64,000 bases of DNA from Eledone cirrhosa (Eukaryota): NCBI GenBank assembly GCA_964016885.1, contig OZ024766.1, positions 14,384,001-14,448,000 on the forward strand. The letters are read 5' to 3'. Position numbers and translations under genes: made by a program. Positions within the stretch are counted from its first letter, which is position 1. Each line of letters opens with the position of its first letter. Of the stretch, positions 817 through 62,420 are shown piece after piece. Under the pieces are notes generated by a model that did not search any database, was not told the DNA's origin, and saw only the letters and a list, made by a program, of their open reading frames with translations.

Positions 817-1371
817 ATCTATACTATAGTGATATCAACTATTTTATATCTATATCATCTGTACTATATCCCTACAACCTATATTATATCTATAGCTATA
901 CTATATCTATTCCTCTATATTATATCTATTGAAGGCGCAAGGATTAGTGGTAAGAGCGTCAGGCTTACAATCATAAAGTTGTGAGTTCGATGCCTGAATC
1001 TTACTGTGTTTTGTGTTCTTGAACAACTCACTTTATTTCATGTTGCTCAAGATACTCTGCTATAGAAATGAGTTGTGATGTCACACTTTCAATAGGAACA
1101 CACACCTGTCTCTCAGTTACACCTGCTGTTGTTTTATTTCAATATATTATGCTACAACAAAGTTATGCTACATCACTTATCTTATTAGAAATATGGTAAT
1201 GAAAGGGTTAATGACATAGACAGTGTCTTTCATTATAAATGTGGTAATGAAAGGGTTAATGACATAGACAGTGTCTTTCATTAGAAATGTGGTAATGAAA
1301 GGGTTAATGACATAGACAGTGTCTTTCATTAGAAATGTGGTAATGAAAGGGTTAATTACTACACCATATAC

Positions 1372-1509
1372 CTGTATGACAGTTGCTACCTTCATAACCA
1401 GCAGCACATCCTCCACTAGAACACACACCTGTCTGTTTGTTACATTTACTGTTGTCAACACAGTGACATGTGTTGCCACAGTTGGCTCCAAATTTACCTG
1501 ATTTACAGA
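1372..1509 (-). CDS. EGF-like exon (VCKSGKFGANCGNTCHCVDNSKCNKQTGVCSSGGCAAGYEGSNCHT)
   Basis: 138 nt, phase 1-1, tttccag acceptor and G|GTATAT donor; intact. The gene probably continues off the window start. Confidence 0.85.
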
Positions 1510-1617
1510 CTGGAAATAAAATATGAGAACAATGACAATTATAACAACATTTACACTATACAAGATAATAAATATCATAATATTATATCATCTATATTAT
1601 AGTGTTGTCATCTATAC

Positions 1618-9269: not shown

Positions 9270-12200
9270 ATCATCATCATCATCATCATCGTTTAACGTC
9301 CCTGTTCCACGCTTGCATGGGTTTGGACGGGAGTTTTCCGACTTGAGGCAAGAGTGGTTGTCTTGCTCGCATAGGACTGTCTGGCGGGTTTTCTACAGCT
9401 GGATGCCCTTCCTAACACCAACCACATTTACAGTGTGGGGCTGGGAGGTTTTTACCGTGTTGCCTACACGGCCACATTACAGCGTGGACTGTGTTTTTTT
9501 GTCGTGACACCTACACGATCTCATTTGTTTCGGCCTGGATGTTGTGGTACCAACATAACTTTACATGGAAAGGGGCGGTGTGGATGGGGTGGGGGTGTGG
9601 GTAGTGGGTGAATTTTGTTAGATATGCCTACTGACTGTAGTAGGTTTTACTTTGTATTTAGGTAAGGCGGGTCTTCTCTATTACTGAGTACCGCCAAAGG
9701 TCTCGGTCCAGTGACATTGTCTTGGAGAGGTGTAAGTGTGTGAGGTCGGAATTTATCAGCTCGTCCCAGGTTTTTCTGGGTCTGCCTACTCCGTGGCTAC
9801 CGTCTATCTTTATTGCCCTGCACTTTGTTATACAGTTGTCGTCTTTCATGCGCATCACGTGACCATACCAACGTAGCCTTCTCTCGGGTAAACAACATCT
9901 GATCCCTCTTATTTCTAATTTTTTCCTTAGTTCGTTTATGCTCTGCCGTTCACGTATATTACTATTACACATCCAGCGGAGCATGCAAGCTTCGTTCCTC
10001 TCTAGTCTGCGTATATCCTCTGCACACAATGCCCAGGTCTCACTGCCATGCAACATTGCTGTTCGTATGCAGGCATAATACAACCTGCCTTTCATTCTTA
10101 GGGAGAACCCTTTAGCGGCTAATAGTGGTTGTAGCGGTTGTCTCCCTTGTTGTGACTCACAACCCCAATAGATTAACAACATCTAGACGGGAAGTAGAAC
10201 CCTTTCTGTAACTTCTGGTCAGAACCCTATAAAACTAACAACTTTAAGTTCTCATTCTCTCATTTGCCCTTCCAGCGCCTGGCCCTCGCCAGGCGTCTCG
10301 CCTTTACCAGGCGTCTCGCCTTTGCCTGGCAATCAAAACGGTAACTACTAACTTTGCTTCATTCTATCATCTATTTCTTTGACATGTCAACTATACTGTT
10401 CTATATATATCCATGATTGTTAATTAAATATTATACACACAAACCATGTCTCCTTGTTACATTCATACAACCCAGTATCTACGCTATATGGTATAAGCTC
10501 TCTGAACTTTTTCCATCCAGTTCTGACTCTAGCTACTGTACTTACAGAGCACCCTCCCCCACTGCTGATTTTGTCACCCAGGTAACGGAAGCTGTCCACT
10601 ATTTCTATAGAACCCTCTGCGCAATTGAAAGAGCTAGTATTCTGTGGGCACTTGCTGCTACTTATTGCACCAGAGCACCGGCCACATGTAAAATCTATGT
10701 TCTTAGTAAGCTTACCTGTGATCCCACTACATCTTTTATGCATCCATACTTTGCATTTGGGACATAAAATGGAGTTTCTACCTACGCCTTTCCTACACAC
10801 TGAGCATGGCCACTTCCCGGAAGGGACCGCCGCCTTATTTTCTTTCTTACAAACTAGAACTTTAGTCTTAGCCAGGTTAATTTTAAGGCCTTTTGATTCT
10901 AGGCCATGTTTGGAATTTCTTCTCTAGCTCGGCCATTGATTCAGCTATGAGCGTTAGATCATCTGCGTATAGGAGTTCCTATGGGCAGCCGGTCTTGAAC
11001 TCCTCTGTTATAGCCTGAAGGACAATAATAAATAGTAGGGGGCTAAGAACAGAGCCTTGATGGACACCAACTTTTACGCTAAACTCTTCACTATATTTGT
11101 TGTTAATTCTAACCTTACTGACTGTTTCTTTATACATGGCTTGTATAGCTCTCACAAGCCATTCATAAACACCGAGTTTTCTAAGAGCCCACCAGATAAT
11201 GGAATGGGGGACTCTGTCGAAGGCTTTCTCCAAGTCGACAAAAGCTAAGTATAGGGGTTTACTTTTAGCTAGGTACTTCTCCTGTAGTTGTCGTACAATG
11301 AAAAGAGCGTCTGTGGTACTTTTGCCTGACACAAACCCGAACTGCATTTCATCTAGATCAATTCTCTCTCTGATTAGTTGCGCTATTACTTTTTCTGTGA
11401 CCTTCATGACCTGGTCGATTAATTTAATGCCTCTATAGTTACTCCTATCTAGGGCATCTCCTTTACCCTTGTAACAGTTAATGATGCTGCTGCTACGCCA
11501 GTCCTTCGGAACAACCCCATTCTGTACGACTTGGTTTACTATCCGGGTGACCATGGTGTGTCCCACCGTTCCAGATGCCTTCAGTATCTCAGCAACTATT
11601 TCCGAAGGCCCAGCCGCCTTACCCGTCTTCATATCTTTGATTGCCTTACTTATTATACTACCCTCGACTAACACTGCTGGTCCCTCTATTGGATCGATGT
11701 GGGGGAGACTGTCTTTCTCCCATTTATTCTCCTCATTTAGTAGCCTTTCGTAGTGACACTTCCAAGCTACCTTCTTATCAGCATCGGTGATGGCAAGTAC
11801 GCCATCATCATTAAGTACACACTTCTCCCCAACAATATCACGGTTTTCCTTGACACATTGCCTAGCAATCCTGAACACCTCACGTTTTTGGTCCTCGCAT
11901 TGTAGTACATGCTTGGACTTTCTTTCCTCTGCTTCCCTTCTTTCGAAGTACACTTGTCTCCTAGCTTCCCTCCTGGCCACTTGATAGTTTTCTCTACTTC
12001 CCCATCCCGCCATACTTTCCAAGCCTGCTTTTTGGCCTTAATTGACCCCTCTACCTTACTGTTCCACCACCATGTTACTCTCCTCCTGCCTACAGGCCTG
12101 CTCCAGCCACAGACTTCATCTGCCGCCATCAGCAGGTTTGCTTTCAGGAATTCCCACTGTTCCTCTATATTGTACGACTCTAATTGCTCTTCCTTACTGT

Positions 12201-13178
12201 CGAAAGCATCAAGTAATATGCTTTTAAATTTATTTCTGGCTGTGGGGTCCTTTAGCTTCCATATTTTCCTCCTGAGGATAGTCCTCTTCTGCTGTCTAGT
12301 ACGTCTCGTCCTGACTATTAGGTCGCTAATTATCAGTCTATGTTGGGACGTGCATTCTTCATGGGGGAGGGATTTAGTGTTTACAACAGACACTCTGTCA
12401 CGTCTTCTGGTAAGGATATAATCTACCTGGCTTGTGTGTTCCCCCGATCTATAGGTGATCAGGTGATTGTCTCGTTTTTTGAAGTTAGTGTTACAGATAG
12501 TTAGGTTATTTGCGTCACAGAATTCCAGGATTCTGGAGCCTTCCACATTTCTAGTACCAAACCCATAGCCTCCATGGATTCCGTCGTAGCCGTCACAATG
12601 TTGTCCAACGTGACCATTTAGGTCGCCTGCAATAATTATATAGTCACTGTCAGATATTTGGGAGGTAGTTAGCAACAGTGTCTCATAGAATCTGTCTTTT
12701 ATAGAGCCAGGCAGTCTGGATTGGGGTGCGTACGCAGATATTACTGTCACCGTAGTTCTATTGAGGACAAGTCTTATTTTAATTATTCTGTCGTTCACTA
12801 TATTTACGTCTATTATCTTATCTGCCCACTTTTCTGCTACCATGATTCCTACCCCACCCAGCCTATTGTCATTTCCCACCCAGAAAAGCTTATAGCATCG
12901 TTTTTTACCCACAATGAATCTAGCAGACCCACCCTCCACCTGGTCTCTTGGATACAGCAAACATCAACCTCCTTACGTTCAAGCATTTCTACAACCTCGT
13001 TGGAGCGACCCTTTAAGGTGCCTACATTCATGGTACCAACTCTGAAGTTTTGGATTGCGTTTGGTGGGTGGGAGCGGTGGGGCACGGGGGGAGATGGGGT
13101 TATGTTAGCCATCCGCGGCCGAAACAAAGAGGAGGAGTGCTCGCATTCTCGTCCACGAGGTGAATGAGGTGAATTTGT

Positions 13179-28819: not shown

Positions 28820-28898
28820 TTCTAGAGGGAAGTGAAATTGTAAAGTGTAACAGGCAAGAAGACAAAATCTTTCCAAACAAACAAAAAAACCAACTTAC

Positions 28899-29156
28899 TA
28901 TCAATATAGTTATAATATATCCTTAGTTGGGAAATATCGTATGTTTGTCTGAGTTCAAGAGTCCACAATGATGTTGGAGAGCTCATTGTATGAGAACAAG
29001 ATCTGTGTTGTGGGTTTTGATCGAAGTTACCATCTACAGCCAGGTTAGCTGACATTGAGTACATTTCATTGCGACAAACATTGTTTTTCATTAGAATTAC
29101 ACTGCTTGTTTTGTCTGTCGTGGTTTGTGTAGCTACTTTACCAATAGCTATATTTC
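28899..29156 (-). CDS. F-type lectin (fucolectin/F5-8 type C-like) domain, N-terminal exon
   Basis: 258 nt, phase 1-1, ttttcag and A|GTAAGT. Translates to NIAIGKVATQ...ANLAVDGNFDQNPQHRSCSHT...LWTLEL...ISQLRIY, matching the FTLD motifs NVAxGKxAxQ, AxxAIDGN and CxHT. Confidence 0.9.
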
Positions 29157-29787
29157 CTGAAAAAGAATGAAAGAAAATTTAATGAAAGTCAATTACTATG
29201 AAATGAAATGGATCTCAGTCAGTTGAAACGATGATTTATCCAGTGGGAAAAGACAAATTGTTTTCTATATACTAAACTTTTGAAATATCTTTTACGTTAT
29301 CTCTAAATTATTCCATATTTCCAGTAGAGGCATGTGGCCTAGTGTTAAGTGTGTTGGACTTACAATCATAATGTCATGGGTTCGATTTCTGGGGTGGGTT
29401 GTGTGTTGTGTTCTTGAGCAAAACACTTCATTTCACGTTGCTCCAGTATACTCTGCTGAAAATGAGCACCAGCAATAGCTGTGGAGGGTGTAACCCTGCA
29501 ATGGACTGATGTCCTGTCCAGGAGGAAGTCTTGTACTCACAGTCGCTTTATGCCATGAAACCAGGATAAGCATTGGCCTAATGAGCCTTCAGGCTTGAGA
29601 CAGTATAGTCCTATACGAACGAGACACGGTCACCCGACCAATCTTGCCTCAATTGGGACAACTCCCGACTAACCCATGCTAGCATGGAAGATAGACGTAA
29701 ACGATGATGATGATGATGATGATATAGCAACCTCAGCCTCAACAGCGACAGCAACAACAATGGCATGATAATTAGAAATCTACTTAC

Positions 29788-32330: not shown

Positions 32331-32740
32331 CACTTGCCGATTTTGTAATGGGTAACCCCTGCTTGCAAAGGTAGACGTAAGATCTTTTATATCTTTTTAT
32401 CGCTTCCTCTATATTTCCTTCTTCTCCCCATCCCTCCCTAGTCCTTCCACCCCAGTCCTCTTTCTTTGTCGTCGTCCTTTTCATTTTCTCGCCCACCCGA
32501 GGCAGCCCCTCGGTCCTTTGTAGCTTCAGTAGCCCCACCCCCTTCCCCTATTCTATATATATATATATATATGTGTGGAAAAAATGAAACGAAATTTCAT
32601 TTCTCACTCTTAGTGCGGCTGTTACTTAAATATAAAGTATGTATACATACATACATATATGTATACAGACGTACAGTAGTATATATACATGCACACATAT
32701 ATATATGTACGTATGGCACTCAATGACAATGTCACAGATT

Positions 32741-35700
32741 AAGACAAATTCACCTCCTGCTGCAAGACGAGAATACAAGGACCCCTCTTTATTTCAGACA
32801 CAGATGACCAACAAAATCCCGTCTCCCACACCCCTCCCTGCCCCTCCAACCCATCCATCCCACCCTCCCAACTTCAGAGTTGGTACCATGAACGTAGGCA
32901 CATTGAAAGGTCGCTCAAATGAGGTTGTAGAGATGCTTGAACGTAAAGAAGTTGATGTTTGTTGTATTCAAGAGACTAGGTGGAGAGGGGGATCTGCCAG
33001 ATTCATCGTGGGTAAAAAACGATGCTATAAACTTTTCTGGGTGGGAAATGACAACGGACAGGGTAGTGTAGGAATTATGTTAGCTGAAAAATGGGTAGAT
33101 AAGGTAATTGACGTAAATATAGTGAATGACAGAATAATTGAATTAAGACTAGTTCTAAATAGAATTACTGTGACAATAATATCCGCTTATGCACCCCAAT
33201 CTGGTCTCCCTGATGTTATAAAGGACAGGTTCTATGAGATGCTAATGCACACTACCTCCCAAATAACCGACAGCGACTACTTAATTATTGCTAGCGATCT
33301 AAACAGTCACGTTGGACAACATAGTGATGGCTATGATGGAATTCATGGAGGCTATGGGGTTGGAAATAGAAATGAGAAGGGTTTCAGAATCCTGGAATTC
33401 TGTGATGCAAATAGCCTAACTATATGTAACACAAACTTCAAAAAACGTGAAAACCACTTGATCACCTATAGATCAGGGGAACACGCCAGCCAGATAGATT
33501 ATATCCTTACTAGAAGACGGGACAAAATGTCTGTTGTAAACTCTAAATCCCTCCCCCGTGAAGAATGCCCCTCCCAACATCGCCTAGTAGTTAGTGACCT
33601 CATAGCCAGGAATAGACGTACTCGACGACAGAGGAGGCCTACCTTGAGGAGAAGAATATGGAAGTTGAAGGACCCCATAGCCAGTGACAAATTTAAAAGC
33701 TTATTATTTGTTGCCTTTGACAATAAGGAAGAGCAATTAGAGACGTGCAATAGAGAGGAACAGTGGCAATCCTTGAAAGTGAACCTGCTGAAAGCAACGG
33801 ATGAAATCTGTGGCTGGAGCAGACCTATTGGCAGGAGGAGAGTAACTTGGTGGTGGAACAGTGAGGTGGAAGAGACAATCAAGGGCAAAAAGCAGGCTTG
33901 GAAAGAATGGCAGGATGGGGGGCGTAGAGAGCACTATCAAGTGGCCAGGAGAGAAGCTAGGAGACAAGTGTACCTTGCAAAAAGGGTAGCAGAGGATAGA
34001 AAGTTCAAGCATGTTCTGCAACGTGAGGACCAAAAACGTGAGGTGTTCAGGATTGCTAGACAATGTGTCAAGGAAAACCGTGATATTGTCGGGGAGAAGT
34101 GTGTCCGTAATGATAATGGTGTACTTGCGCTCACTGATACTGATAAGCCTGGAAGAGGCACTACGAGAGACTATTAAATGAGAAGAATAAATGGGAAAAA
34201 GATAGTCTGCCCCAAATCGATCCAATGGTGCAAGGTAAAGGTAGTATAATAAGTAAGGCAATCAAAGATATGAAGACAGGCAAGGCAGCTGGGCCTTTGG
34301 AGGTAGTTGCTGAGATGCCTTCAACATCTGGTATGGTGGGACACACTATGGTCACACGTATAGTTAACCAAGTAATACAGAATGGAGTCATACCGAAAGA
34401 CTGGCGTAGCAGCATCATCATTAACTGCTACAAGGGTAAAGGGGATGCTCTAGATAGGGGAAACTATAGAGGCATTAAGTTAGTTGACCAGGTCATGAAG
34501 ATCACAGAAAGAGTAATAGCGCAACTAATCAGAGAGCGAATTGATCTAGATGAAATGCAGTTTGGGTTTGTGTCAGGTAAAAGTACCACAGACGCTCTTT
34601 TCCTTGTACAACTACAAGAGAAGTACCTAGCTAAAAGTAAACCCCTCTACTTAGCTTTTGTAGACCTGGAGAAAACTTTTGACAGAGTCCCCCGCTCCAT
34701 TATCTGGTGGGCTCTTAGAAAACTAGATGTAGATGAATGGCTGGTGAGAGCTATACAAGCTATGTATAATGAAACAGTCAGTAAGGTTAGAATTAACAAT
34801 GAATATTGTGAAGAATTTAGTGTAAAAGTTGGCGTTCATCAAGGCTCTGTCCTTAGCCCCCTCTTATTTATTATTGCCCTTCAGGCTATAACAGAGGAGT
34901 TCAAGACCCGCTGCCCATGAGAACTCCTATACGCAGATGATCTAACGCTCATAGTTGAATCAATGGCTGAACTAGAGAAGAAATTCGAAACATGGAAGCA
35001 TGGCCTAGAATCAAAAGGCCTTAAAGTTAACTTGTCTAAGACTAAAGTTCTAGTTTGTAGAAAGGAAAATAGGGCACAGGTGCCCTCAAGGAAATGGCTA
35101 TGCTCAGTGTGTAGGAAAGGAGTAGGCAGAAATTCCATTTTATGTCCCAAATGCAAAGTATGGGTACATAAAAGATGTAGTGGGATCACAGGTAAACTAT
35201 CTCAGAACGTAGACTTTATATGTGGCCAATGCTCAGGTGCAATAAGTAGCAAGTGTCCAAAGGATACTAGCTCCTTCCATTGCCCAGATGGTTCTATAGA
35301 AATAGTAGACACTTTCCGTTACCTGGGTGACGAAATCAACAGTGGTGGAGGGTGTTCTGAAAGTACAGTAGCCAGAGTCAGAACGGGATGGAAAAAGTTC
35401 AGAGAGCTTATACCGTTGTTGGCCACAAAAGGTTTCTCTCTAAAAATGAAAGGCAGATTGTATGATGCCTGTTTCTCTCTAAAAATGAAAGGCAGATTGG
35501 TATGGCCATGTGATGCGCATTAAAGACGACAGTTGTATAAAAAAAGTGCAGGGCGATCAAAATTGATGGTAGTTACGGAGTAGGTAAACCCAGAAAAACC
35601 TGGGATGATCTGATAAATTCCGACCTTACATACTTACATCTCTCTAAGACAATGTCTCTGGACCGAGATCTTTGGTGCTATGCAGTAATACAGAAGACCC

Positions 35701-36545: not shown

Positions 36546-39500
36546 TACAACGGCGGCAAAGATTGGAAACCGAATCTGAGCTTTCCCGCCTCTGGGACAA
36601 GCTGTGGTAAGTTGTTTACGCTCAAGAGACTAACCCCTTGGGAGAGGCTAAACACAGGTCAGAGGTGTTTACGCCTGACAGAAAAGGTCAGAGAATATAT
36701 CCATCTTTCTGAGTTGTTTACGCTTGGCAAACTAATCCCTTGGGAGACTCTAACCAAAGTTCAGAGGATATATCTATCCTTCTAACTTCAACTCTTATAA
36801 ATACAGGGGTTGTTTACGCCCCGACAGATAAGAAGTGATATACAGACAACACAAGTGGCCTTTACAAGCTCTCGTCACGAAATACACCAGTCCGTCACTA
36901 ATTTCCTCTCCTGCCTGGCTGATCGATACAACCACATATTCCGTTACAACTGGTGACCCCGTAAAACAGACACACAACTTCTGATCATCCACTACAAACG
37001 ATGTCTCTAGCACACGACGATTCATCTACGGCAGAAATGGCAGTGAGGGGGGCATTTACATTAAGAATTCCACCATTCTGGGTGCACGATCTAACACTGT
37101 GGTTCGCGCACATCCAAGCGCAGTTCGCATAATAACACACAGCCCACCTGTCGCTGCACGACCTAGAAGGCTACCACCAGACCGGCTGAAGTCCGTCAAA
37201 CAAGAATTTCAGCACATGCTGGATCTCGGCATCATACGTCTGTCCTCACCCATACACTGTGTACCCAAGAAGTCGTCGAACGACTGGCGAATCTGTGGCG
37301 ACTACCGTGCACTGAACAACTGCACCGTTCCTAACTCTTATCCAGTGCCTCATCTACAGGACTTCTCTAGCTCGCTGCACGGGGCTCGCATATTTTCGAA
37401 GATCGATCTTGTGCGAGCTTACAATCAGATACCCGTTGAGCCCGCAGATATTCCAAAGACCGCCGTCACAACACCCTTTGGAATGTTCGAATTTCTGCAT
37501 ATGCCTTTCGGTTTGCGAAATGCAGCGCAAACATTCCAGCGATTCATCGATACAGTCACCAGGGGTCTACCTTTTGTATACGCATACATTGACGACTTAC
37601 TGGTGGCCAGCAGCTCCGACGAAGGACATGAGAAACACCTGGATCTCCTATTCACACGTTTGCGTGAATATGGAATTGTTATCAACCCCAGCAAATGTGA
37701 GTTCGGAGTTGCGTCCCTTCATTTTCTGGGACACATCATTGACAAAGATGGTATTCGCCCACTTAAGGAGAAAGTCAAATCCATCATTGATTTTCCACAA
37801 CCTATATCTCTCCGCAAACTGCGAGAATTTCTTGGCCTGGTAAACTTCTACGGAAGATTTATACCCCACTGTGCAGAGACAGCCCAACCACTCACAGATT
37901 TGCTGCGGCAGCGTACAACCAAAAACGCAAACATCAAGCTCAGCGAAAAAGAATATACCGCTTTCGCTGAGTTGAAGAAAATGTTGTCCGAGGCTACAAT
38001 GCTGAGTTACCCCAAACCTGACACCCCAATGTGTTTATTGACTGATGCATCCGATTTCGGAGGTGGAGGTGTGCTTCAACAACTCTCTGGCGATATTTGG
38101 CGACCTGTATCTTTTTTCTCTAAGCGATTAAAACCCGCTGAAACTAAGTACAGCACATTCAGTCATGAATTATTGGCAGCATACCTTGCTGTCAAGCATT
38201 TTCGACACATGCTAGAAGGTCGTGTGTTCTCTATATACACCGACCACAAACCACTAGTGTACGCGTTCAATGCCAAGCCTGACCGACACTCACCCAGGGA
38301 GGTCCGACATCTGGACTTCATTTCTCAGTACACTACTGATATTCGGTACATTAAGGGTGCCACCAACTCAGCAGCTTATGCCCTATCGCGCATGGAGCTT
38401 AAGGCAATCCACACCACTGCCACTATCGACCTCCAGAAGATTCCAGCGGATCAACAGAATGACGAGGAACTGCTGCAACTCCGGAAATCATCCTTGAAAT
38501 TGAAGGAATGCCCGCTGCCCTCTTCTTCGGGTTATATTTGGTGTGACATATCCACAGGCCGCGAGCGCCCATACGTGCCCCGGAAACATCGACGCGACGT
38601 TTTCTCGGCACTGCATTCTCTGGCACATCCTGGCGTCCGCGCCACGCAGAAACTGATGGTTGCCCGCTTTGTGTGGCCCAACATCAACAAGGACACCCGC
38701 GAATGGGCTAGGAACTGAATCGTGTGCAAGAAGACGAAAATTCACCGGCACATCAAAGCCCCGATCGCTTCTTTCGCAACACCTGATGCACGGTTCCAAC
38801 ATGTGCATATAGACATAGTTGGACCTTTGCGTCCTTCTCAAAACTACACTCAACTTCTCACCTGTGTCGACCGATTTTCTCGCTGGCCAGAAGCTTTTCC
38901 CCTGACGGATATTACTGCGGAAACTGTCGCCAAAACGCTAGTGTTTCACTGGGTTTCGTGTTTCGGCACACCCGCGACCATCACTACGGATAGAGGACGT
39001 CAGTTCGATTCGAACCTATTTACCGAGCTGACTCGTCTCCTCGGGTGCAAACGCATCCGTACAACAGCGTATCACCCTGCCGCTAACGGCATGGTAGAAC
39101 GCTTACACCGCCAGCTAAAAGCATCTATCAAGGCTTACGAAGACTCCACTAACTGGTTCGAATACCTCCCACTCATTCTTCTTGGTATTCGTTCCACTGT
39201 TAAAGAGGGAGTCGGACATTCTCCGGCTGAAATGGTGTATGGCACCGTACTCACTCTACCCGGACAAATGATCACTCCTGTTTCGCCACAAGAACTTCCA
39301 GACCCTACAAAATATGTGCACTGTTTACGGTCATCAATGTCGCATCTGTCTCCTTCAGCCCCTAAACAACAGCACGTTACTTCACACATACCAAAAAGCA
39401 TCGATACATGGACGCATGTTTTCGTTAGAAATGACGGTATTCCATCGCAACTTCGTCCGCCGTATTCCGTCCGGGCCCTACAAGGTGATACAGAAATGCC

Positions 39501-40763
39501 CCAAGTATTTCGGCCTTGACTTGAACGGGAAGCGAAATACCGTCTCCATTGATCGTTTAAAAAAAGCGTTCCTAGAACAGGAATTGCCACCAGTACCCAC
39601 CGTTTCTCCAGACTCACCAACAACTTTGCCCGACACAAACACGGCAAATTCTGCACAACCCCGACACACCAAATCCGGAAGAACAGTCCGATGGCCCACG
39701 CCATGGGATACGTACAAGTTTATCGGGTAAGTACAAATTATGCATCTGGTCGACATTTTGGCTAATTTGTACATTTCAACGAATCGGCCAATTTCTGTGG
39801 TCATGAACTATTGCTACACACAAATCAATTAACTCTGTGCATCACCCACATCAAAAGAACAGACAAAAGAACATTTTCCCGTTTCTATGAAATGAACGAA
39901 CTTTTAATCAACAAACTTTTCGTACGAACATTTTCAATATTATGTAACATCACAGTACATTTTCCTGAATGTAAATTCCTTTTGGTTTGCATGCTTTCTT
40001 TCATGTCTCCTGTTTGTAAATGACTTTCATGTGTTTTTTTATTTTTACTGATTTTCTTCAACAACACACCTAGTCATACCTATCTTCATTTCACATGCAC
40101 CTAGATCGTTCAATCTTAACTTGTTTACGCTCAAGAGACTAACCCCTTGGGAGAGGCTAAACGCAGGTCAGAGGTGTTTATGCCTGACAGAAAATAGGTC
40201 AGAGGATATATCCATCTTTATGACTTGTTTACGCTTGGCAAACTAATCCCTTGGGAGACTAACCAAAGTTTAGAGGATATATCTATCCTTCTAAATTCTA
40301 CTCTTATAAATACAGGGATTGTTTACGCCAAAAACAGAAAAGAAGTGGGATACAGACAAGACAAGACGTTTTACAAGCTCTCGTCACAAAAAAACAGTCT
40401 ACCACTTATTCTCACCTTCCTGGCTGATCGCTGACTCCTGCAATACAAATAAGTAAATATACTGATACGCCGCACACACGCATTCATAGTGACTCCAGCA
40501 TTTGTACACGTATCATTCATTTCTGTTTACACGTATTATAATCGTATTCTGTGATATTTGAATTAACGTGGCTTGAAGAGCCACCAAATTATTGTATGAA
40601 TATTTTGTGTCAATTATTTTATCATTCAATATTCAAATTGAATATTGTTGTAATAAAATAAACTTTGTAACAACACTCCTGGTATTTTTCTTTACACCGA
40701 AACCACCATACCAACAGTTACATCCATCGTTGTCGTTACAATCACACATAATATTCCGTTACA
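36546..40763 (+). mobile_element. Ty3/Gypsy LTR retrotransposon, internally deleted
   Basis: LTR-like repeats ~36546-36948 and ~40121-40763, both ending ATATTCCGTTACA; PBS TGGTGACCCCG at 36951-36961; gag stub and RT-RNaseH-IN order. Confidence 0.93.
37065..39730 (+). pseudogene. pol: Gypsy gag stub + pol (RT YIDD, RNase H TDAS, integrase)
   Basis: [21 protein letters not shown] runs directly into RT; premature TGA at 38716-38718 replaces an integrase Zn-finger Cys; frameshift near 39470. Confidence 0.92.
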
Positions 40764-44580: not shown

Positions 44581-44719
44581 ATATGTTAGGTGTGTATATA
44601 TAGATGTGTATTGATGTCCATGTGGGAGTCATTGATACCAATGCTAGGGATGGCTGGTCTTCTATATTACTGTATAACACCAAAGATCTCGATCCTGTGT
44701 CATCGTCTTAGAGAAGTGC

Positions 44720-46308
44720 AATTGTGTGAGGTCAGCTGTTATCACCTCATCCCAGGTCTTCCTACTTCATATCTTCCATCAATTGTGTGAGGTCAGCTTT
44801 TATCACCTCATCCCAGGTCTTCCTACTTCATAGCTTCCATCAATTGTGTCAGCTCAGCTATTATCACCTCATCCCAGGTCTTCCTACTCCATAGCTTCCA
44901 TCAATTGTGTCAGGTCAGCTGTTATCACCTCATCCCAGGTCTTCCTACTTCATAGCTTCCATCAATTGTGTGAGGTCAGCTATTATCACCTCATCCCAGG
45001 TCTTCCTACTCTATAGCTTCCATCAATTGTGTGAGGTCAGCTTTTATCACCTCATCCTAGGTCTTCCTACTTCATAGCTTCCATCAATTGTGTGAGGTCA
45101 GCTTTTATCACCTCATCCCAGGTCTTCCTACTTCATAGCTTCCATCAATTGTGTCAGGTCAGCTGTTATCAACCCATCCCAGGTCTTCCTTCTCTATAGC
45201 TTCCATCAATTGTGTCAGGTCAGCTTTTATCACCTCATCCCAGGTCTTCCTACTTCATAGCTTCCATCAATTGTGTTAGGTTAGCTTTTATCACCTCATC
45301 CCAAGTCTTCCTTCTCTATAGCTTCCATCAATTGTGTCAGGTCAGCTTTTATCACCTCATCCTAGGTCTTCCTACTTCATAGCTTCCATCAATTGTGTCA
45401 GGTCAGCTTTTATCACCTCATCCCAGGTCTTCCTACTTCATAGCTTCCATCAATTGTGTAAGGTCAGCTTTTATCACCTCCTCCCAGGTCTTCCTACTTC
45501 ATAGCTTCCATCAATTGTGTGAAGTCAGCTTTTATCACCTCAGACTAGGTATTTTTACTCCATAGCTTCCATCAGTTGTGTGAGGTCAGCTTTTATCACC
45601 TCATCCCAGGTCTTCCTACTCCATAACTTCCATCAATTGTGTGAGGTCAGCTTTTATCACCTCAAACTAGGTCTTCCTACTTCATAGCTTCCATCAATTG
45701 TGTAAGGTCAGCTTTTATCACCTCATCCCAGGTCTTCCTACTCCATAGCTTCAATCAATTGTGTCAGGTCAGCTTTTATCACCTCATCCCAGGTCTTCCT
45801 ACTTCATAGCTTCCATCAATTGTGTCAGGTCAGCTTTTATCACCTCATCCCAGGTCTTCCTACTCTATAGCTTCCATCAATTGTGTAAAGTCAGCTTTTA
45901 TCACCTCATCCCAGGTCTTCCTACTTCATAGCTTCCATCAATTGTGTGAAGTCAGCTTTTATCACCTCAGACTAGGTCTTCGTACTCTATAGCTTCCATC
46001 AATTGTGTCAGGTCAGCTTTTATCACCTCAAACTAGGTCTTCCTACTCCATAGCTTCCATCAATTGTGTGAGGTCAGCTTTTATCACCTCAAACCAGGTC
46101 TTTTTACTCCATAGGTTCCATCAATTGTGTAAGGTCAGCTTTTATCACCTCATCCCAAGTCTTCCTACTTCATTGCTTCCATCAATTGTGTCAGGTCAGC
46201 TTTTATCACCTCATCCCAGGTTTTCCTACTTCATAGCTTCCATCAATTGTGTCAGGTCAGCTATTATCACCTCATCCCAGGTCTTCCTACTTCATAGCTT
46301 CCATCAAA
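44720..46308. repeat. 61-bp minisatellite, ~26 copies, derived from RTE ORF end
   Basis: Unit caattgtgtgaggtcagcttttatcacctcatcccaggtcttcctacttcatagcttccat. Confidence 0.95.
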
Positions 46309-48479
46309 TTTATAAAATGCTTGAAAACAACTTAGAAAAAATGTTACTCAAAATCAAAATTTAATCCCAAAGAGAGGAAATTGGAACATTATCCACTGAA
46401 AGTTGCTTAACCCTTTAGTGTCCAAACCAGCCAAAACTGGCCAGAATTCTCTACCTCTTTCTGTTGAAACTGGCTGTAACTGGTCGCTCAGACTGATGTT
46501 AAGGTATTGTTCTCAAAATAAATACTTTCAAAATCTGATAGATTCAATATTATGTGAGATAAAGCCTTTACCATGAAAATATAATAGTATATATAAAATA
46601 ATGTGAATGCTAAAGGGTTAACCCTTTAACATTTAAACCGGCAATAACTGGCCAGAGTTCTGTCCTCTTTTTCTTTTTAAACCACTCGTAACTGGCCACT
46701 CATACTGATGTTAAAGTATTGTTCTCAATATAAATAATATCAGATTCGATATTATGTGAGGTAAAGACTTTGCCATGGAAATATAATAGTATATATAGAG
46801 TAATGTAAATGTTATGTGAGATAAAGACATTACCATGGAAATATAATAGTATATATAGAATAATGTAAATGTTAAAGGCTTAAACCCTGAAGAAAGGACT
46901 TTTAGGTCCCGAAATATTGGACAGATAAAAGAACAACAAAAAAAAAACAAAACAAAGATTACCAGGTAACTTTTACTTTTCCTTACCTCATCTTATTGTC
47001 CATTTTGCATTGTTTAGCCTTCTATCTCTTTCAACGTTATATTTTATATAGAATGCTTCAAACAAACTACAACATTTAATTATATATCATCATCATCATC
47101 TTCAATTAACGTCCATCTTCCACACTAGCATGTGTTAGACGGGTCCCATTTAGAGGCAAGTGTGGGCTGGATGCTTTTTTGCTGTCTTCTACACGTCCAG
47201 TGTGGGTGAGATATATATATATGTGTATGTATATATCATCACCATTTAGCGTCCATTTTTCCATTCTTGCATGGGTTAGACGGGTCATTCACACCAGGAG
47301 GCAAGTCTGGCCAGGGTTGGCCATGTGTCGCACCTTGCTCAGGTGAGGTCTGTAAATTTGGTGGGGTATTTTACAGCTGGATTCCCTTCCTAACATCAAC
47401 CATGTTTACAGTGTGGAACTGGATGGCTCTGTTATGAGGAGGGACAGGCCAGTTGGCTGCACTGAACTCGTCTCACAGTGGAACTATAATTTTGGGGGCC
47501 TGGTACTGGGTGGTACCACTGTGAGGAGGGGGTAGCCAGTCAGCTGCTCCAAACTCATCTCACGAGGTTACCACAGTTTTGGGGCCCTGTACTAGATGAT
47601 CCCGCTATAGTGATGGTGTAGCTAGTTTATATGAATAAGTAAATCTGACGCAGGTATATTTCTACAGTTTACCAATGTACCGTACTTACTGGCGCCAATG
47701 ACGACCAATTTTTGAAAAAAAATAATAATCAACCTTCGGCCTCCAGGACATATGGTAGATATTTTGGACTTATATTAGGGAAAAAGTAATGTCTTTGATG
47801 CTAGGAAATATGGTGAAAATGTAAAATTTCCACTGTTAAATCTATCCCTGCATTTTAAGTATTCTCTATTATCTCATACTGTTACTTTCTTATAAGTCCT
47901 ATAAGAATGCATTTTTTGCTAAACTGCCATAGAGCAGACCTCTGAAGTGATAGAAGGATATAATTTATAGAGCATGCTGGAATACCACTGCTTACATTGG
48001 AGAGAATTTCTCTGGACAGAATGTTGATATCTACAGTTTACCAATATAGAAATATAACATCTCCACTGTTAAATCTATCTCTGCTTCTAAAGTATTCTCT
48101 ATTATCTCATACTGTTTCTTTCTTATTTCAGAATATCAGATGACATTGGGATAAATTATTATTTTCAATCTTGGATACATCATCTCTATTTATCATCATT
48201 TGAAGACTAAAACCTTCTAAACAGAACTTATATAACACTGTTTATATAAATCTATAGTTCAATTACTGTGAAATATTTCCTCAAAACTGAGTTTATTTTC
48301 TTCACTATAAGATGGTTTTGTATTTTAACTAAACTTGGATGAAACAGAAGTTTGTATTATCTTCAGATATTAACTGAAATCACAGTTGAGGGAAATATAG
48401 AAGAATATTTTATAAGAAATATAATATAAAAAATATTACAAGAAAAACATCTGTATATTCTGTTGAAGAAGAAATCATT

Positions 48480-49200
48480 ATGCCAAATAAATTGATAAAG
48501 AAGATTAAATGTGAAACACAATCTAAAGTGTTTAGTATTGCTGGTGAGATGACAAAGGTTAGAGAAGAGAAGCCATATCACTGTGATATCTGTGATAAAT
48601 CATTCTCTCAAAGTGGTACCTTAACTACTCACAAACGTATACATACAGGAGACAAGCCATATCACTGTGATATCTGTGGTATATCATTCTCTGGGAAAAG
48701 TAGCCTAACTACTCACAAATGTATACATGCAGAAGAGAAATCATAATGCATTGACATCAGTGATAAATCCTTCTCTCAAATTTGTGAATTAATGAGAATA
48801 CAAATACATATCATTGTAACATCTTAGGGAAATCCTTCTCTTTGAATGTTACATTAACTACACACACACATATACATACAGCTGGGAAGCCATATCACTT
48901 TGATATATTTGGTACATCATTCTCTAAATGTTGTGGCTTCACTAGACACCAACATCTACAGGAGAGGAACCATATCACTGTGATGTCTGTGATAAATCCT
49001 TCTCTAAATGTTGTGGTTTCACTAGACACCAACATATACATACAGGAGAGGAACCATATCACTGTGATGTCTGTGATAAATCCTTCTCTAAATGTTGTGG
49101 TTTAATTAGACACTAACATATACAGGAGAGGAACTATATCACTGTGATGTCTGTGGTACATCTTTCTCTTATAAAGATTACTTAATGCAACACAATTAGA
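48480..49200 (+). pseudogene. C2H2 zinc-finger array pseudogene
   Basis: [43 protein letters not shown]..., then about 6 fingers broken by stops and frameshifts; candidate acceptor tttcag at 48130. Confidence 0.9.
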
Positions 49201-52005
49201 TAAAAACCATGTCCCTCACCTAAAATAGTGCCATCAATGTTGTTAATATTTTGAATAAACCTGTTTTACTAAGAAATTCTCCTTTCATTTTATGTCCGTA
49301 CAAACACAGTCTTCTCTCTTACACACCACTTCAGCTCACTCTTAAACCCAGCTTCTTCTTGAACTTGTCCAAGCTCTCCCTTTCTCTCACACTTACACAA
49401 CATATCCTACAAAGCATGGTTGTTTCATATCTCTCCAGTCTACATAACCTCTGCAGTCACAGCCCTTATTTCGTTACCATGCATCATTGCATATCACCCA
49501 CATGTGTCATACAGTTGTCCTTTTGTACAGAGAGAGAGAAACCTTTTGTGGTCAACTGTTGCAGTAGCTCTCTAAACTTTTTCCATCCTATCCTTATTCT
49601 AGCTATACATCTTTCAGAGCAGCCCCCTCCACTTCTAATTAACTCACCTAGATTGCAAAATATATTTGTCAGCATACTTTATGAAGGGTCTGTTTGGAAG
49701 TGCCTCGCCTAATAAACAATGGTGCCATAACTGGACTCAGAAACCAATGGTCACACATACATGGTAAGTTAGCTAAGAACGTAGGTTTTACATTGGTTCA
49801 CTGCGCTGGAGAAGTAAGCAGCAATCACGTTTAGGAGACAAGCTCTATCAAATATTTAAAGGGTTCCATAGAAGCAGTTGACAGTTTCTGTTACCTGGGG
49901 TATCAAATAAGCAGTGGAGGTAGGTGTTCTGAAAGTACAGTAACAAGAGTAAGAACAAGATGGCAGAGGTTTAGGGTGTTACTACTGCTGCTAGCTACAA
50001 AAGGTTGTTTCACCAAATTGATGTGTGCATATAAACAGCAATGCTGCATTGCAGTGAGGACCCCAGAAGATTGGATAGAAATGAAGCTTGAATTCTCCGA
50101 TGGATGTGTAATATTAATATACATGAAGGGGAAAGTGTTAATAAACTGAGAGAGAACCTGGGCATGAGAGGGAAAAGATACAGTATGCAGGAGAGGAGAT
50201 TGCTGTGGTATGGACATGTGATGTGTATGAAGGTAGAGATGCTGTATAAAAGGTTGACCACTTGAAATTGATGGAAGAGGAAGACCTAGGAATGCTTGGG
50301 ATGTGGAGGTAAAAACTGACCTGACACCATTGTACCTCTCAAAGGTGATGACACAGGATTGAAATCTCTGGCGTTATACAGTACTGCAGGAGACCTGCAT
50401 TCCCATGTGCACGGGTTGACACAACATTTAGTGGTTTGAAGTATGCTCCAATTTTCCTCCCTTTCACATCTTAACACTCCACCCCCTTACCAGCTAAGTA
50501 CACCACCCTGACCTACCTCTCCAATCCCCACTCTACATACACACAACCCCACCCCCACTTTCACATCTGATACACCTCTCTTGACCAACCCATGTATACA
50601 AGTAAGGAAAGCTTAACATTATCTCCTCCAATGCTGCTGAAATGGCTAAAAGCCCTCAGGCAACCCTGTAAGGTGGTCATGCAGGTGTCATGACAAAAGA
50701 ACACTGAGTCCACTCTGTTAGGTAACATGACAAAAGAACACCTAACCCTCCCTGCAAGGTAGTCATGCTGATGACATGACAAATAAGCACCCAGTCCACC
50801 CTGTGAGGTAGACATGACAGAAGGCCCCTAGCCCACTCTGTAAAGTAGTCATGCTAGTGGCAAGACTGAAGGGACCCGAAGCACCCTTCAAAGTGATCAA
50901 ATTGGTGACATGACTTGACACCATTTTTTAGTTTACTTCTAAAATATCTCATTTTTATTTTACTTTTAAAATATCTCATATATTTAAAAATTACTTATTT
51001 TAAAAAATTATTATTTATTTCTTAAAAAAATTACTTTTTAAAGATTATTTAAAATTTTTTAATATTTTTAAATATTTTTTTAATATTTTTAAACATTTTA
51101 AATAGTTTAAGTACTTTTTAAGTATTTTATTTTGTTAAAAGGGTTTTTTGAGTATCTTCTGAGATTAAAAAACATTTTTTTTTTTATTTTTCCAGAAATT
51201 TTTTCCAGAACTTTTAATATTTTAATATTTTTAATATTTTTTAATTATTTAATATTAGAGTTATAACCAATAACTAATTCTGGCTATATATATCTTTCAA
51301 CATTTATATCTTCGTCAAAATGGTCTCATACTAACTAATAAATAAACAAAGCTGGGTTTTTCAGTATCTTCCTAATTTAAAACATTAAAAACATATAAAT
51401 AATCTTATTAACTCAGTTAATTTAATTACTTACACTAAATATAAACCAGTATCCCTCATAACTTATTTAAACAATTATCTATAACATGATATAGCCATTT
51501 ATCCACTCATATATCTATTCTTCTATCTATTGATTCTCCTATTTTCTACTTTATATCTATTTATTTTCAATTTATTATTCAATGTCTTTATATATATTTA
51601 TATTTTCTATATATCTATTTTTCTATATACTTATAATAGTAAATATTATATTGTATTATATTAGAATTCTAACAATAATTAGTAAATATACGTAACATTA
51701 ATATAAACTTAATACTTATTTACGTTACATGAGTTCATCCTCTATAAATGTCTTTCTTCTCTCTATCTCTCTATCTATCTCATAACAGTAATTTTTTCTC
51801 TCTCTTTCTTCTCTTTCTTCTCTTTCTTCCCTATCTTTCCCCAGCGTAATTTAAATAAACGGTTGTTTTTTCAATTTTTCATACATTCATTTGCATATTC
51901 ACACATAACTTTGAATTACCCCTAATAAGTTTCCCCTATCCAGCGAATTTCCGACCGTTAAGGTTGATTTCCATGGGTATGTCGTTATTTATAAAACAAA
52001 TTTTG

Positions 52006-52070
52006 TATTTTATCTGATGAAAGAGCACCAAGATTGACTTGGTCGCCCTTGAAATATATATAATAAAATA
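52006..52070 (+). ncRNA. Minimal type I hammerhead ribozyme motif
   Basis: UAUUUUAU-CUGAUGA-AAGAGCACCAAG auuga CUUGGUcGCCCUU-GAAA-U AUAU AU-A-AUAAAAUA; 8-bp perfect helix I and intact core. Confidence 0.85.
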
Positions 52071-53157
52071 AATATGCAAAAGTTCTATTTAAATTGTTGG
52101 GATACAACGAGCAAATATGTTTATAACTGATATAAAGCACTCAACAAGTATTTGGAATAAACATACGATATTAACAATCCTTTTGTATTCTATGTACTCA
52201 ATTATACTATGTACTATATTGATTTATACTTCTCTCTATATGTGAGTATATATGTATATGTGTATATTGACATACATGTACATGTGTTCTATGCATTTTT
52301 ATGAATATATGTCTGTCAGTATGTATGCATGCGTGACGCGTATCTACCAATTGGATGAGGATGCACACACATGTATATATATGTATATGTAAGAATTGTG
52401 TGTGTACATGTACATGTATACCCATACAATTTGATTGCAGATAGACATAACTAACAGCCATAAATGCATAACAGCTAATCTTATATATTTATATATATAT
52501 ATTAAAAAGAAATTGTTATAAAAAATATTTTATTTAATAACACAAAGGATGGATAAGATTAAATTAAAAATTCATTTATGCTTTGTATGTATATATTATA
52601 TACGTGGTTAGATATGGTGTGTATTTTGTGAGTGTGTGTATATATATATTTATGTGTATTTTTGCGTGTGTACGTGTTATATGATATGTAGTTCTCTAGC
52701 AATATATAGATTTCTTAATGTTTAGATTCCAATTTTTAATATATTGATCTCAATTTTTAAACTAAATATCTAATCATAGTTAAACAATGATTAATTTCTC
52801 ATATTATGTATGTATATTCCATTCATGATTATTAATATTTCTAATTTTATTTATTCATTTCATCTCAATTGTTAAGTTAACTTAATATGACATGACTTAA
52901 TGTTTTCGTTCTTTCCCCCTCTCTCTATCTCTATATTTTTCTCTCTGTCTGGTGTTTTGATATATCTCTCTTGTTTTTCTCTCTTTTTTCTGTCTCCCTT
53001 TTCTCTCTCTCCGTCTTTTTCCTTATCTGTAACACAACGACTTATTTTAAAAATACTAATATAAGTAAACAACTCCACTATCCCTGAGTCTTCCAAAAGT
53101 AACGGTTGCATTTTGTAAGGGTATGTCAATATTTATTTATAAAACTGTTATATATTG

Positions 53158-53222
53158 TATTTTGTCTGATGAAAGCATACCATAATTTAACATGGTATCC
53201 TTGAAATATGTATAATGAAATA
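53158..53222 (+). ncRNA. Minimal type I hammerhead ribozyme motif (paralog of 52006-52070)
   Basis: UAUUUUGU-CUGAUGA-AAGcAUACCAU..AUGGUAUcCUU-GAAA-U AUGU AU-A-AUGAAAUA; helices conserved despite sequence change. Confidence 0.83.
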
Positions 53223-53290
53223 GATATGGTTTTATAAATATAGTTTCCATTTGTTAATATCGTATAATAAAATAAATATAATTTTATAAA

Positions 53291-53620
53291 TCATCATCAC
53301 CGTTTTACGTCCGTTCTTCCATGCTAGCATGGGTTAGACGGGTTGTCCTGTTGTGGGTAGTGTCTGGTCGGCTGACCATGCCTTGCTCATACAGGAACTG
53401 ATTTTGGCTTTTCTACAGCCGGATGCCCTTCCTAACACCAACCTCATTTACAGTGAGTGTTGCGTGCTTTTTTCCGTGGCGCCTATGCGTCCACTTTACA
53501 GTGTGGGCTGGGTGCTTTTTTTGTGTGGCACCTCCACGACCACTTTGCAGTGGGAGGGTGTGGGGGCATATTGTCTATATGCTTCAGCTTGAACCCATGG
53601 GAGGTCGGGTACTCTGTATT
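53291..53620 (-). mobile_element. RTE/SINE 3' end
   Basis: (CAT)n, ccatgctagcatgggttagac and ggatgcccttcctaacacc motifs shared with the other RTE tails. Confidence 0.8.
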
Positions 53621-53961
53621 ACTGCGTGACGCCAGAGGTCACGGTCGTGTGTCATCGCCTTTGAGAGGTGTGTGTTTATATATATATATGTATATATATA
53701 CAAATAAATTATCGAGAATCGGAATCTCGGCCCACGAAATAACGAAACACAATCTTCGAAAAGTGTAGCAAAGTGCTCAATAGTTTGGATAAACCAGAGC
53801 TATAACTAATATTTAAATACCAACACACTGAGATAATGCTTAAAATCATTCGCACAGCCGAAAAAACGACCAAGAAAATTCGGGTCAGACAAATAATAAA
53901 TAAATATATATATATATATATTTTTTTTTTCTTTTAACATATATGTGTTTATAAAATATAT

Positions 53962-55735: not shown

Positions 55736-56126
55736 ATAAATTAATAAAATAATGAATAAACAAAGAAACAGTTCTTTATATTAAAAAAATTCATCATTTT
55801 ACGATCGTTTCTAGGATATATATGTGTTAGAGTTGGTATGCATATTCTATAGATCTATGTACAATATTTATACAAACTATCAGAGGGAATATACATACCT
55901 ACACATATATATGCTGTCTTCAGAAATAATATTATTTCTGAAGACAGCATATATATGTGTAGGTATGTATATTCCCTCTGATAGTTTGTATAAATATTGT
56001 ACATAGATCTATAGAATATGCATATAAACCTCTAACACATATATATCCTAGAAACGATCGTAAAATGATGAATTTTTTTAATATAAGGAACTGTTTCTTT
56101 GTTTATTCATTATTTTATTAATTTAT
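55736..56126. repeat. ~390-bp spacerless palindrome
   Basis: Centre cagaaataat|attatttctg at 55930/55931; arms about 195 bp with few mismatches. Confidence 0.93.
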
Positions 56127-59440: not shown

Positions 59441-60274
59441 ATTATTATAGACTTCAAGTCGGTAGACGGTCAGACGCTATGCTTTCCAGCATAGTTACGT
59501 ACCTTTACGATCTGAGTTCAAATCCCGCCGAGGTTGACTTTGCCTTTCATCCTTACGGGGTCGATAAAATAAAGTACCAGTAATGCACTGGGTAATTGCT
59601 GGCCTTGTGCCTAAAGTAGAAACAATTATTATAGACTTCAAGTAAATCTTTGTCAACTTACCTCCTTCACATATAATCAATGTGTTGTGTTGTTAGTTGT
59701 TACTAAACAACCAAAGAAATAATCTCTTTGTTATCAAATTAAAAGTTTCAAAGATGTTATCAGCTTTATTTCACGACATTAACGTTGGTGTATCTTCTTC
59801 ATCTTTAGTCATAAATTCATATCTTGTCAGAATGAAGTAGTGAGGCTGACTTTATGTCTTTAGCTACAGATTTGATAGGAAATATATATATATTAGGATG
59901 ATATGTGGTCTAAAATATAAATATTGTCTATAAATGACTGATAGCAGATGTTCTGGTGAAATAGTAGTTTTACTACTACAGATTGTAATGGAACTCCTAG
60001 TAGACACAATTGTAAAGTAAGAATAAATATGACAGTGTAAGACTGATGTCGGGGAAAGTAAATTGTGTATATATATATATATATATATAATTGTTACACA
60101 AGATATAATTAGATTAATTAAAGTTATAATGAAGACAGCAGGTACTCGGTGTCATTGACAATATTTCACCCCTCTTACCGGTGTCATACGTTCTTATATT
60201 GGGACACTTTTACTGTATCTGCTGCGATATTTCGTGCCTGCTTTTACTGCAAGTGCAAGAAGGATAACAAAAAG

Positions 60275-62420
60275 TACCCCGTCTACACTGTAAAGTTGTC
60301 ATGTTGGTGACATGATAGTGCCCAGTCCACACAGTAAAGTAGTCATGTTGGTGCCATGATAGTGCCCAGTCCACACTGTAAAGTAGTCATGTTGGTGCCA
60401 TGATAGTACCCAGTCCACACTGTAAAGTAGTCATGTTGGTGCATGATAGTACCCAGTCCACACTGTAAAGTAGTCATGTTGGTACCATGATAGTACCCAG
60501 TCCACACTGTAAAGTTGTCATGTTGGTGCCATGATAGTGCCCAGTCCACACTGTAAAGTAGTCATGTTGGTACCATGATAGTACCCAGTCCACTCTGTAA
60601 AGTAGACATGTTGGTGCCATGATAGTGCTCAGTCCACACTGTAAAGTAGTCATGTTGGTGCCATGATAGTACCCAGTCCACACTGTAAAGTAGTCATGTT
60701 GGTGCAATGATAGTACCCAGTCCACACTGTAAAGTAGACATGTTGGTGCAATGATAGTATCCAGCCCACACTGTAAAGTAGTCATGTTGGTGCCATGATA
60801 GCACCCAGTCCACACTGTAAAGTATTCACGTTGGTGCCATAATAGTGCCCAGTCCACACTGTAAAGTAGTCATGTTGGTGCCATAATAGTGCCCAGCCCA
60901 CACTGTAAAGTAGTCATGTTGGTGCCATGATAGCACCCAGTCCACACTGTAAAGTATTCACGTTGGTGCCATAATAGTGCCCAGTCCACACTGTAAAGTA
61001 GTCATATTGGTGCCATGATAGTACCCAGTCCACACTGTAAAGTAGACATGTTGGTGCCATGATAGTACCCAGTCCACACTGTAAAGTAGTCATGTTGGTG
61101 CCATGGTAGTGCCCAGTCCACACTGTAATGTAGTCATGTTGGTGCCATGATAGTGCCCAGTCCACACTGTAAAGTAGTCATGTTGGTGCCATGATAGTGC
61201 CCAGTCCACACTGTAAAGTAGTCATGTTGGTGCCATGATAGTACCCAGTCCACACTGTAAAGTAGTCATGTTGGTGCCATGATAGTGCCCAGTCCACACT
61301 GTAAAGTAGTCATGTTGGTGCCATGATAGTACCCAGTCCACACTGTAAAGTAGTCATATTGGTGCCATGATAGTACCCAGTCCACACTGTGAAGTAGTCA
61401 TGTTGGTGCCATGATAGTGCCCAGTCCACACTGTAAAGTAGTCATGTTGGTGCCATGATAGTGCCCAGTCCACACTGTAAAGTAGTCATGTTGGTCCCAT
61501 GAGAGTGCCCAGTCCACACTGTAAAGTAGTCATGTTGGTGCCATGATAGTGCCCAGTCCACACTGTAAAGTAGTCATGTTGGTGCCATGATAGTGCCCAG
61601 TCCACACTGTAAAGTAGTCATGTTGGTGCCATGATAGTGCCCAGTCCACACTGTAAAGTAGTCATGTTGGTGCCATGATAGTGCCCAGTCCACACTGTGA
61701 AGTAGTCATGTTGGTGCCATGATAGTACCCAGTCCACACTGTAAAGTAGTCATGTTGGTGCCATGATAGTGCCCAGTCCACACTGTGAAGTAGTCATGTT
61801 GGTGCCATGATAGTGACCAGTCTACAATGTGAAGTAGTCATGTTGGTGCCATGATAGTGCCCAGTCCACACTGTGAAGTAGTCATGTTGGTGCCATGATA
61901 GTGCCCAGTCCACAATGTGAAGTAGTCATGTTGGTGCCATGATAGTGCCCAGTCCACACTGTGAAGTAGTCATGTTGGTGCCATGATAGTGCCCAGTCCA
62001 CACTGTGAAGTAGTCATGTTGGTGCCATGATAGTACCCAGCCCACACTGTAAAGTAGTCATTTTGGTGCCATGATAGTACCCAGTCCACACTGTAAAGTA
62101 GTCATGTTGGTGCCATGATAGTACCAAGTCCACACTGTAAAGTAGTCATGTTGGTGCCATGATATTATTCAGTCCACACTGTAAAGTAGTCATGTTGGTG
62201 CCAGGATAGTACCCAGTCCACACTGTAAAGTAGTCATGTTGGTGATACCGCAGAAAGCACCCAGTACACACTGCAAATGTAGTTGGCGTTATGAAGGGCA
62301 TCCAGTCATGGAAACCGAGACCCGGTCATCTGATCTGAATTGTCTCACAATAGGACAACTCATCTAACCCATGCTAGCATGGAAAAATGGACGTTAAACA
62401 GTGATGATGATGATTATGAT
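60275..62420 (+). repeat. 44-bp minisatellite (~44 copies) running into an RTE/SINE 3' tail
   Basis: Unit gtcatgttggtgccatgatagtgcccagtccacactgtaaagta; continues as agcacccagtacacactg...gaagggcatccag...(GAT)n. Confidence 0.95.

Follow-up and report, generated by a model that had tools for sequence, protein, structure and literature searches.

Two hammerhead motifs in Eledone cirrhosa as the probable product of one Penelope-like element nested in the hammerhead of another

The window analysed here is a stretch of 64,000 nt from Eledone cirrhosa (assembly GCA_964016885.1, contig OZ024766.1, positions 14,384,001 to 14,448,000). Exons of a multi-EGF gene, among them a galactose-binding-like exon at 28825-29178, occupy its minus strand from 1373 to 29950, and no exon of this gene turned up above 29950 in a search that reached 40 kb beyond the window. 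The galactose-binding-like exon exists in 27 copies of 98-100% identity, mostly 100-330 kb apart on contigs C20 and C27; these figures point to a very recent expansion of the gene family. Broken retroelement frames lie at 36985-39519 (plus), 9658-12963 (minus) and 32636-35523 (plus), and we take these to be a Ty3/Gypsy-like pol and an RTE-like LINE. The window also holds two minisatellites, one at 44597-46421 (61-bp period, 26 overlapping copies listed) and one at 60135-62400 (44-bp period, 45 copies listed), and a near-perfect palindrome at 55736-56126 with arms of ~196 bp and no spacer, which is absent from several of the duplicates described below. The short zinc-finger array of the window (Table 1) has longer paralogs, namely an 813-aa frame with 21 HTG linkers on C12 and a frame of 326 aa with 9 linkers on C18.

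Two minimal type I hammerheads stand on the same strand, as the initial annotation had claimed. Their CUGAUGA cores start at 52014 and 53166, GAAA is present in both, the predicted cleavage sites after 52062 and 53214 agree with those given earlier and are 1,152 nt apart, and the palindromic helix III is there in each as an 8-nt palindrome; intact core, helices I and II and palindromic helix III together also bear out the assignment to the minimal hammerheads found in Penelope-like elements (PLEs). A generic core scan of the 64-kb window gave 3 matches, 2 of which are these motifs, the third being a hammerhead-like core at 21111 on the minus strand with a non-palindromic helix III; an Rfam scan of the window gave 55 matches at E<=1, none of them to a hammerhead family. 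The proposed homology upstream of the motifs is equally clear, with an alignment score of 166.5 against 63 +/- 7.5 (maximum 97.5) for 200 shuffles and a BLAST identity of 76.6% over 111 nt between the two ends, and the spacer indeed holds no convincing ORF, none exceeding 93 aa between the motifs and those listed being of low complexity.

The further claim, that pairing is conserved over sequence, stands with one correction: helices I and II pair across family copies, but hammerhead 1 in the window is without its native distal helix I strand, which a family-B insertion has displaced. In an alignment of 15 family copies 90.7% of cells pair, helix I does so in all cells, and both sides have changed in 4 of 18 pairs, with compensatory changes in helix II; family A has a 1-nt bulge, and its inner helix II count is lower for that reason. 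The covariation score of these copies, which were picked by hand and whose relatedness the score does not take into account, is 0.248, against 0.181 for shuffled and at most 0.141 for slid alignments.

Table 1. Features of the hammerhead locus and its surroundings, in window coordinates
Feature	Position	Strand	Remarks
Truncated C2H2 zinc-finger array	48390..49105	+	Pfam zf-C2H2; ~3 fingers; possible read-through source
Family A PLE, 5'-truncated 3'UTR ending in hammerhead 1	50922..52075 (5' edge 50922-50932)	+	From dispersed-copy matches
Hammerhead 1	52006..52070	+	Helix I 52006-13/52063-70; core 52014-20; cut predicted after 52062
Hammerhead 1, inner parts	Helix II 52021-50; palindrome 52054-61	+	
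Target-site duplication (17 bp), left copy	52059..52075	+	Spans predicted cleavage site of hammerhead 1; single in L071
Inverted family-B tail (102 nt)	52076..52177	-	Follows the hammerhead in the element's 5' region
Family B PLE, 5'-truncated 3'UTR	52176..53262	+	Reaches the family's short end, 48 nt past the predicted cut
Hammerhead 2	53158..53236	+	Core 53166-72; helix II 53173-202; palindrome 53206-13; cut predicted after 53214
Target-site duplication (17 bp), right copy	53263..53279	+	Repeats 52059-52075
Displaced remainder of family A 3' end	53280..53289	+	Native distal helix I strand; directly after the single duplication sequence in L071
Unrelated interspersed repeat	53290..53689	+	Also at the empty site; presumably of a SINE-like class

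Each of the two hammerheads forms the 3' pLTR end of its own high-copy Penelope-like family; the two families are here called A and B. Searches of the 3.0-Gb genome with each end gave 1853 (end 1) and 1651 (end 2) first-look candidates, of which 40 per end were scored. Dispersed family-A copies match the window from 50922-50932 to 52076 at 83-88% identity and then diverge, and the longer ones carry an RT/GIY-YIG ORF upstream; an independent family-B copy with a 678-aa frame (L062) aligns over 52176-53262, at 84.8% over 1201 columns. The stretches 51280-51900 and 52690-53070, which had been put forward for a search for GIY-YIG domains, turn out from the longer copies to be 3'UTR, the ORF stopping ~120 nt (A) and ~470 nt (B) upstream of where the window copies start. 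The 3'UTR of the elements is AT-rich and 1.35-1.6 kb long.

Long-frame candidates gave an ORF in 13 of the 15 cases fetched, and the A and B ORFs are 67% identical over 387 aa. The frames, of ~742 aa, contain YRDD and a C-terminal YVG/RxxxH region, the arrangement of a single ORF with RT and C-terminal GIY-YIG. Pfam assigned no RT or GIY-YIG family to the PLE frames, a PDB sequence search with them returned 2 chance matches and nothing else, and Atlas neighbours of the PLE proteins carry GIY-YIG/RVT_1, which serves as a lead only. Identical paired hammerheads 3839-4234 nt apart flank 6 of the 13 long-ORF copies; the natural unit is the intact element with two identical hammerheads 3.8-4.2 kb apart. 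Among full-length family-B copies (L114-L127) several combine an uninterrupted ~742-aa frame with identical pLTR hammerheads, and 15193 first-look candidates for the N-terminal part suggest that family B is very abundant and recent. At least four more families of hammerheads, whose helix II sequences are different and which often form inverted pairs, lie within a few kb of A/B copies (at L008, L019, L021, L024, L063, L067, L069 and L139).

Why, then, do two hammerheads of different families stand 1,152 nt apart? A family-B copy has inserted into the 3' strand of A's hammerhead, and the pair is a nested insertion. The empty site survives in a paralog on C18 (L071), which matches the window over 48560-52075, resumes at 53263 and contains the 17-mer once. 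Between the two copies of the target-site duplication (TSD) lie an inverted B piece, 88-93% identical over 52076-52177 to the post-hammerhead stretch of full-length B copies, and a truncated B 3'UTR, so that B must have landed in A's hammerhead. Since the two motifs are the tail ends of two PLEs, one of which landed in the other, the distance between them came about by the accident of insertion. The event left hammerhead 1 its cut site and proximal helix I and moved the distal strand away. B did not land in a (TA)n run, and for that reason the locus offers a clean 17-bp TSD together with an empty site, which is useful given that the TSDs of Hydra-type elements are usually unreadable.

We also considered whether PLEs systematically target hammerheads. 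The distal 3' strand motif is kept in 100 of 103 dispersed A/B-type hammerheads, a count that excludes the paralog L022, and 13 of 13 other tail junctions lie in TA runs, so that such targeting finds no support. On C12, L022/L148 represents an older paralog of the window's family-A insertion; here a different sequence interrupts the hammerhead a few bases into its 3' strand, and the right flank of L022 was not rejoined within 10 kb.

The layout of inverted tail and body recurs in L060, L068, L132 and L136. The elements have two fixed ends, ~48 and ~138 nt after the cut, both UAUA and both upstream of the ATG at 186-188 nt, and the 5' regions of L117, L119, L122 and L124 display both, with a tail of ~90 nt. 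Of 110 element ends at 87 loci, chosen by similarity rather than as a genome census, 45 are the short end (running into TA), 63 are tailed and 2 are other; the 64 tail ends examined comprise 43 that lead into TA/CA repeats, 19 that extend to the ATG and 2 others. Priming at element ends may use TA microhomology. L1 twin priming likewise leaves two segments of a single RNA between TSDs, one inverted and one in sense orientation, joined to each other; in the present insertion, however, the two priming sites would be at fixed places in the 5' region of the PLE, each containing UAUA. B's GIY-YIG endonuclease would have cut both strands, 17 nt apart, in the TA-rich DNA of A's hammerhead; both nicks would then have primed reverse transcription on B RNA at two fixed start sites, ~48 and ~138 nt after the cleavage site, which would leave the tail, in inverted orientation, attached to a truncated body, in the manner of L1 twin priming. 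Double priming from two nicks is what we infer from the structure of the insertion, and the fixed UAUA ends and the inverted-tail insertions agree with double priming that begins at two internal sites. For an Anolis PLE, two RT start sites defining the tail and cutting of both strands have been reported (PMC11167929). How PLEs come by their tails and inversions is an open question, to which the arrangement seen here is relevant.

How did the nested locus come to be repeated? The junction query was full-length at 27 of 40 scored places (the remaining 13 matched in the tail only), and since 40 of 1513 junction candidates were scored, 27 is a count among scored places. These lie on C20 (15), C27 (9), C16 (2) and C19 (1). 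Within 1.5 kb of fetched sequence the 27 have their flanks in common, all 15 copies fetched at 10 kb have common flanks beyond both elements, and a copy of the window's galactose-binding-like exon lies 22-31 kb away in 24 of the 27. The locus probably reached its 27 copies by being carried along in a large segmental duplication. Conserved spacing, on which the idea of a unit depended, was not found: among the 27 copies the distance ranges from 1133 to 3759 nt (1133-1249 in 23 copies, 1715-1720 in 3, 3759 in 1), and it is 1152 in 2. Same-strand hammerhead pairs, at spacings of 362-3558 nt, also occur in 7 of 35 dispersed loci sampled, a caution that such pairs arise by chance in this genome.

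Among the duplicates the motifs show about half the variation of the remaining sequence, a difference that is not significant (4 of 183 motif columns variable against 90 of 2026 elsewhere, Fisher p=0.18) in a test that has little power, masks columns near gaps and treats copies related by descent. Of the 26 other copies, 9 break the pair that closes helix II of hammerhead 2, and one of these 9 also alters helix III of hammerhead 1; 18 of the 27 keep both motifs pairing as in the window. Taken together, the pair is very probably a truncated B element nested in the 3'-end hammerhead of A, at a locus spread by segmental duplication. The retrozyme-like unit of the initial annotation does not hold, for the locus proves to be the case under which that annotation had itself given the idea up, independent PLE insertions with no conserved spacing.

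In the parent elements, identical hammerheads would likely dimerise through helix III and process a tandem transcript. Origin by nesting alone leaves room for later use, and an accidental pair might still be active: read-through from A's pLTR or from the upstream zinc-finger gene could let the heterodimer excise an RNA of 1.13-1.25 kb, which may circularise. Folding predictions agree with the earlier suggestion that the two motifs could pair with each other, the helix III palindromes and helix I strands being cross-compatible. In silico, all helix I combinations form 8 contiguous pairs, the constrained heterodimer of isolated fragments equals the cofold MFE (-42.9 kcal/mol), and the cis heterodimer is less stable than the ensemble by only 2.1 kcal/mol; since the motifs can fold in this way, a read-through RNA might be cut. 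As equilibrium predictions on 1.3 kb with few controls, the cis fold gives probabilities of 0.27-0.42 for swapped helix I, ~0.16 for the inter-motif helix III and 0.002 for self helix I, the helix III value being higher than all 5 obtained with shuffled spacers (0.001-0.080) and all 4 from dispersed pairs (0-0.097). The TSD preserved the cut site and proximal helix I of hammerhead 1, a zinc-finger gene lies on the same strand 3 kb upstream, and an internal promoter is reported for Penelope (PMC2377424). Against activity, the helix III probability varies tenfold among duplicates (0.03-0.29 in three others), and five AATAAA, a common motif in AT-rich DNA, lie between the zinc-finger ORF and hammerhead 1. 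Published cleavage of minimal PLE hammerheads is weak too: they cleave weakly even as dimers (PMC4209133), the Anolis hammerhead depends on protein, and its cut site coincided with neither the start nor the end of any RNA-seq read (PMC11167929), and 1 of 9 Xenopus dimers cleaved (bioRxiv 10.64898/2026.07.22.740005). We consider an active heterodimer quite unlikely.

A bolder version would have the locus born as a retrozyme: by inserting, B gave the cut site a second copy and deprived A of its own distal helix I partner, changes in favour of a strand-swapped A/B heterodimer, a non-coding circle of 1.13-1.25 kb would be released from read-through RNA of up to 27 loci, and the circles would be mobilisable by PLE proteins. 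Taken as one joint claim this is quite improbable. Were a circle in fact excised by the heterodimer, this would demonstrate a direct route from PLE debris to retrozymes. That the pair is a true non-LTR retrozyme, or a non-autonomous PLE unit spreading by its own RNA, might be argued from its 27 copies on four contigs and from rotifer PLE pLTRs that mobilised the sequence between them (PMC3846280). Yet flanks beyond both elements are common to every copy checked, neither a tandem array nor a flank-free copy was seen among the 40 scored places, the two ends belong to different families, and the TSD and empty site explain the spacer, so we regard such a unit as exceedingly improbable. The nested pair is likely not a functional circular-RNA unit, and the hammerheads at this locus are most likely passive remnants.

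There are earlier descriptions of hammerheads at PLE ends, of nesting and of segmental duplication; searches by title and abstract found no paper describing this locus or a nested hammerhead pair. PLEs are on record for octopus (PMC13282606), and on octopus hammerhead ribozymes the one relevant source found was PMC8557442, which sets out the motifs of Hydra-clade PLEs and lists Hydra-1_Obim as its octopus family. On their motifs, A and B would file with that clade, with a longer UTR and tail. They share with it the C-terminal GIY-YIG, in family-B frames DKT in place of DKG (as SDKT), and, in the frames of both families, a CxCX5C linker together with CxxC and CxH about the conserved E and N, arranged as in that paper's supplement alignment when compared by eye; family B has RWR near the N-terminus where Hydra-1_Obim has RWK. 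Hammerheads in the pLTR and (TA)n targets, both found for A/B elements, are likewise Hydra-clade features, as are tandem and inverted copies and a tail at one end (PMC8557442). The distance of 3.84-4.23 kb between pLTR hammerheads departs from the short length given there, "generally <3 kb", a tendency rather than a strict criterion, and from the 2507 bp of Hydra-1_Obim; the tail is ~90 nt here against 30-40 in print, and the hammerhead sequence differs from the Hydra-1_oBim row; the families are different ones.

Like the minimal hammerheads of metazoan PLEs as reported in PMC4209133, the motifs have a type I core, a long helix II and a small palindromic helix III, a design of dimer type, and they occur mostly singly, in truncated PLEs, and also in close inverted pairs. 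Unlike those hammerheads, helix II is closed by A-U rather than the usual G-C, the palindrome has 8 nt, and the pair joins two different families. With non-LTR retrozymes (PMC7229834; bioRxiv 10.64898/2026.07.22.740005) the locus has in common two same-strand type I hammerheads, non-coding sequence of low GC content (26%) between them, and PLE ancestry. It differs from them in that it is not a tandem repeat, its ends being 77% alike and alignable only near the motif; in its length of 1152 nt (1133-3759 across copies) against monomers with a conserved length of ~150-450 nt (PMC7229834); in having spread by segmental duplication, with no flank-independent dispersed or arrayed copies among those checked; and in its minimal rather than canonical motifs, known here from DNA and predicted folds. 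The closest precedent for the nesting comes from Adineta vaga, where nested Penelope insertions with TSD and empty site are reported (PMC3846280); at the Eledone locus, by contrast, the TSD measures 17 bp rather than 8-10, the inverted piece is little more than the tail, and the target is the hammerhead of another element.
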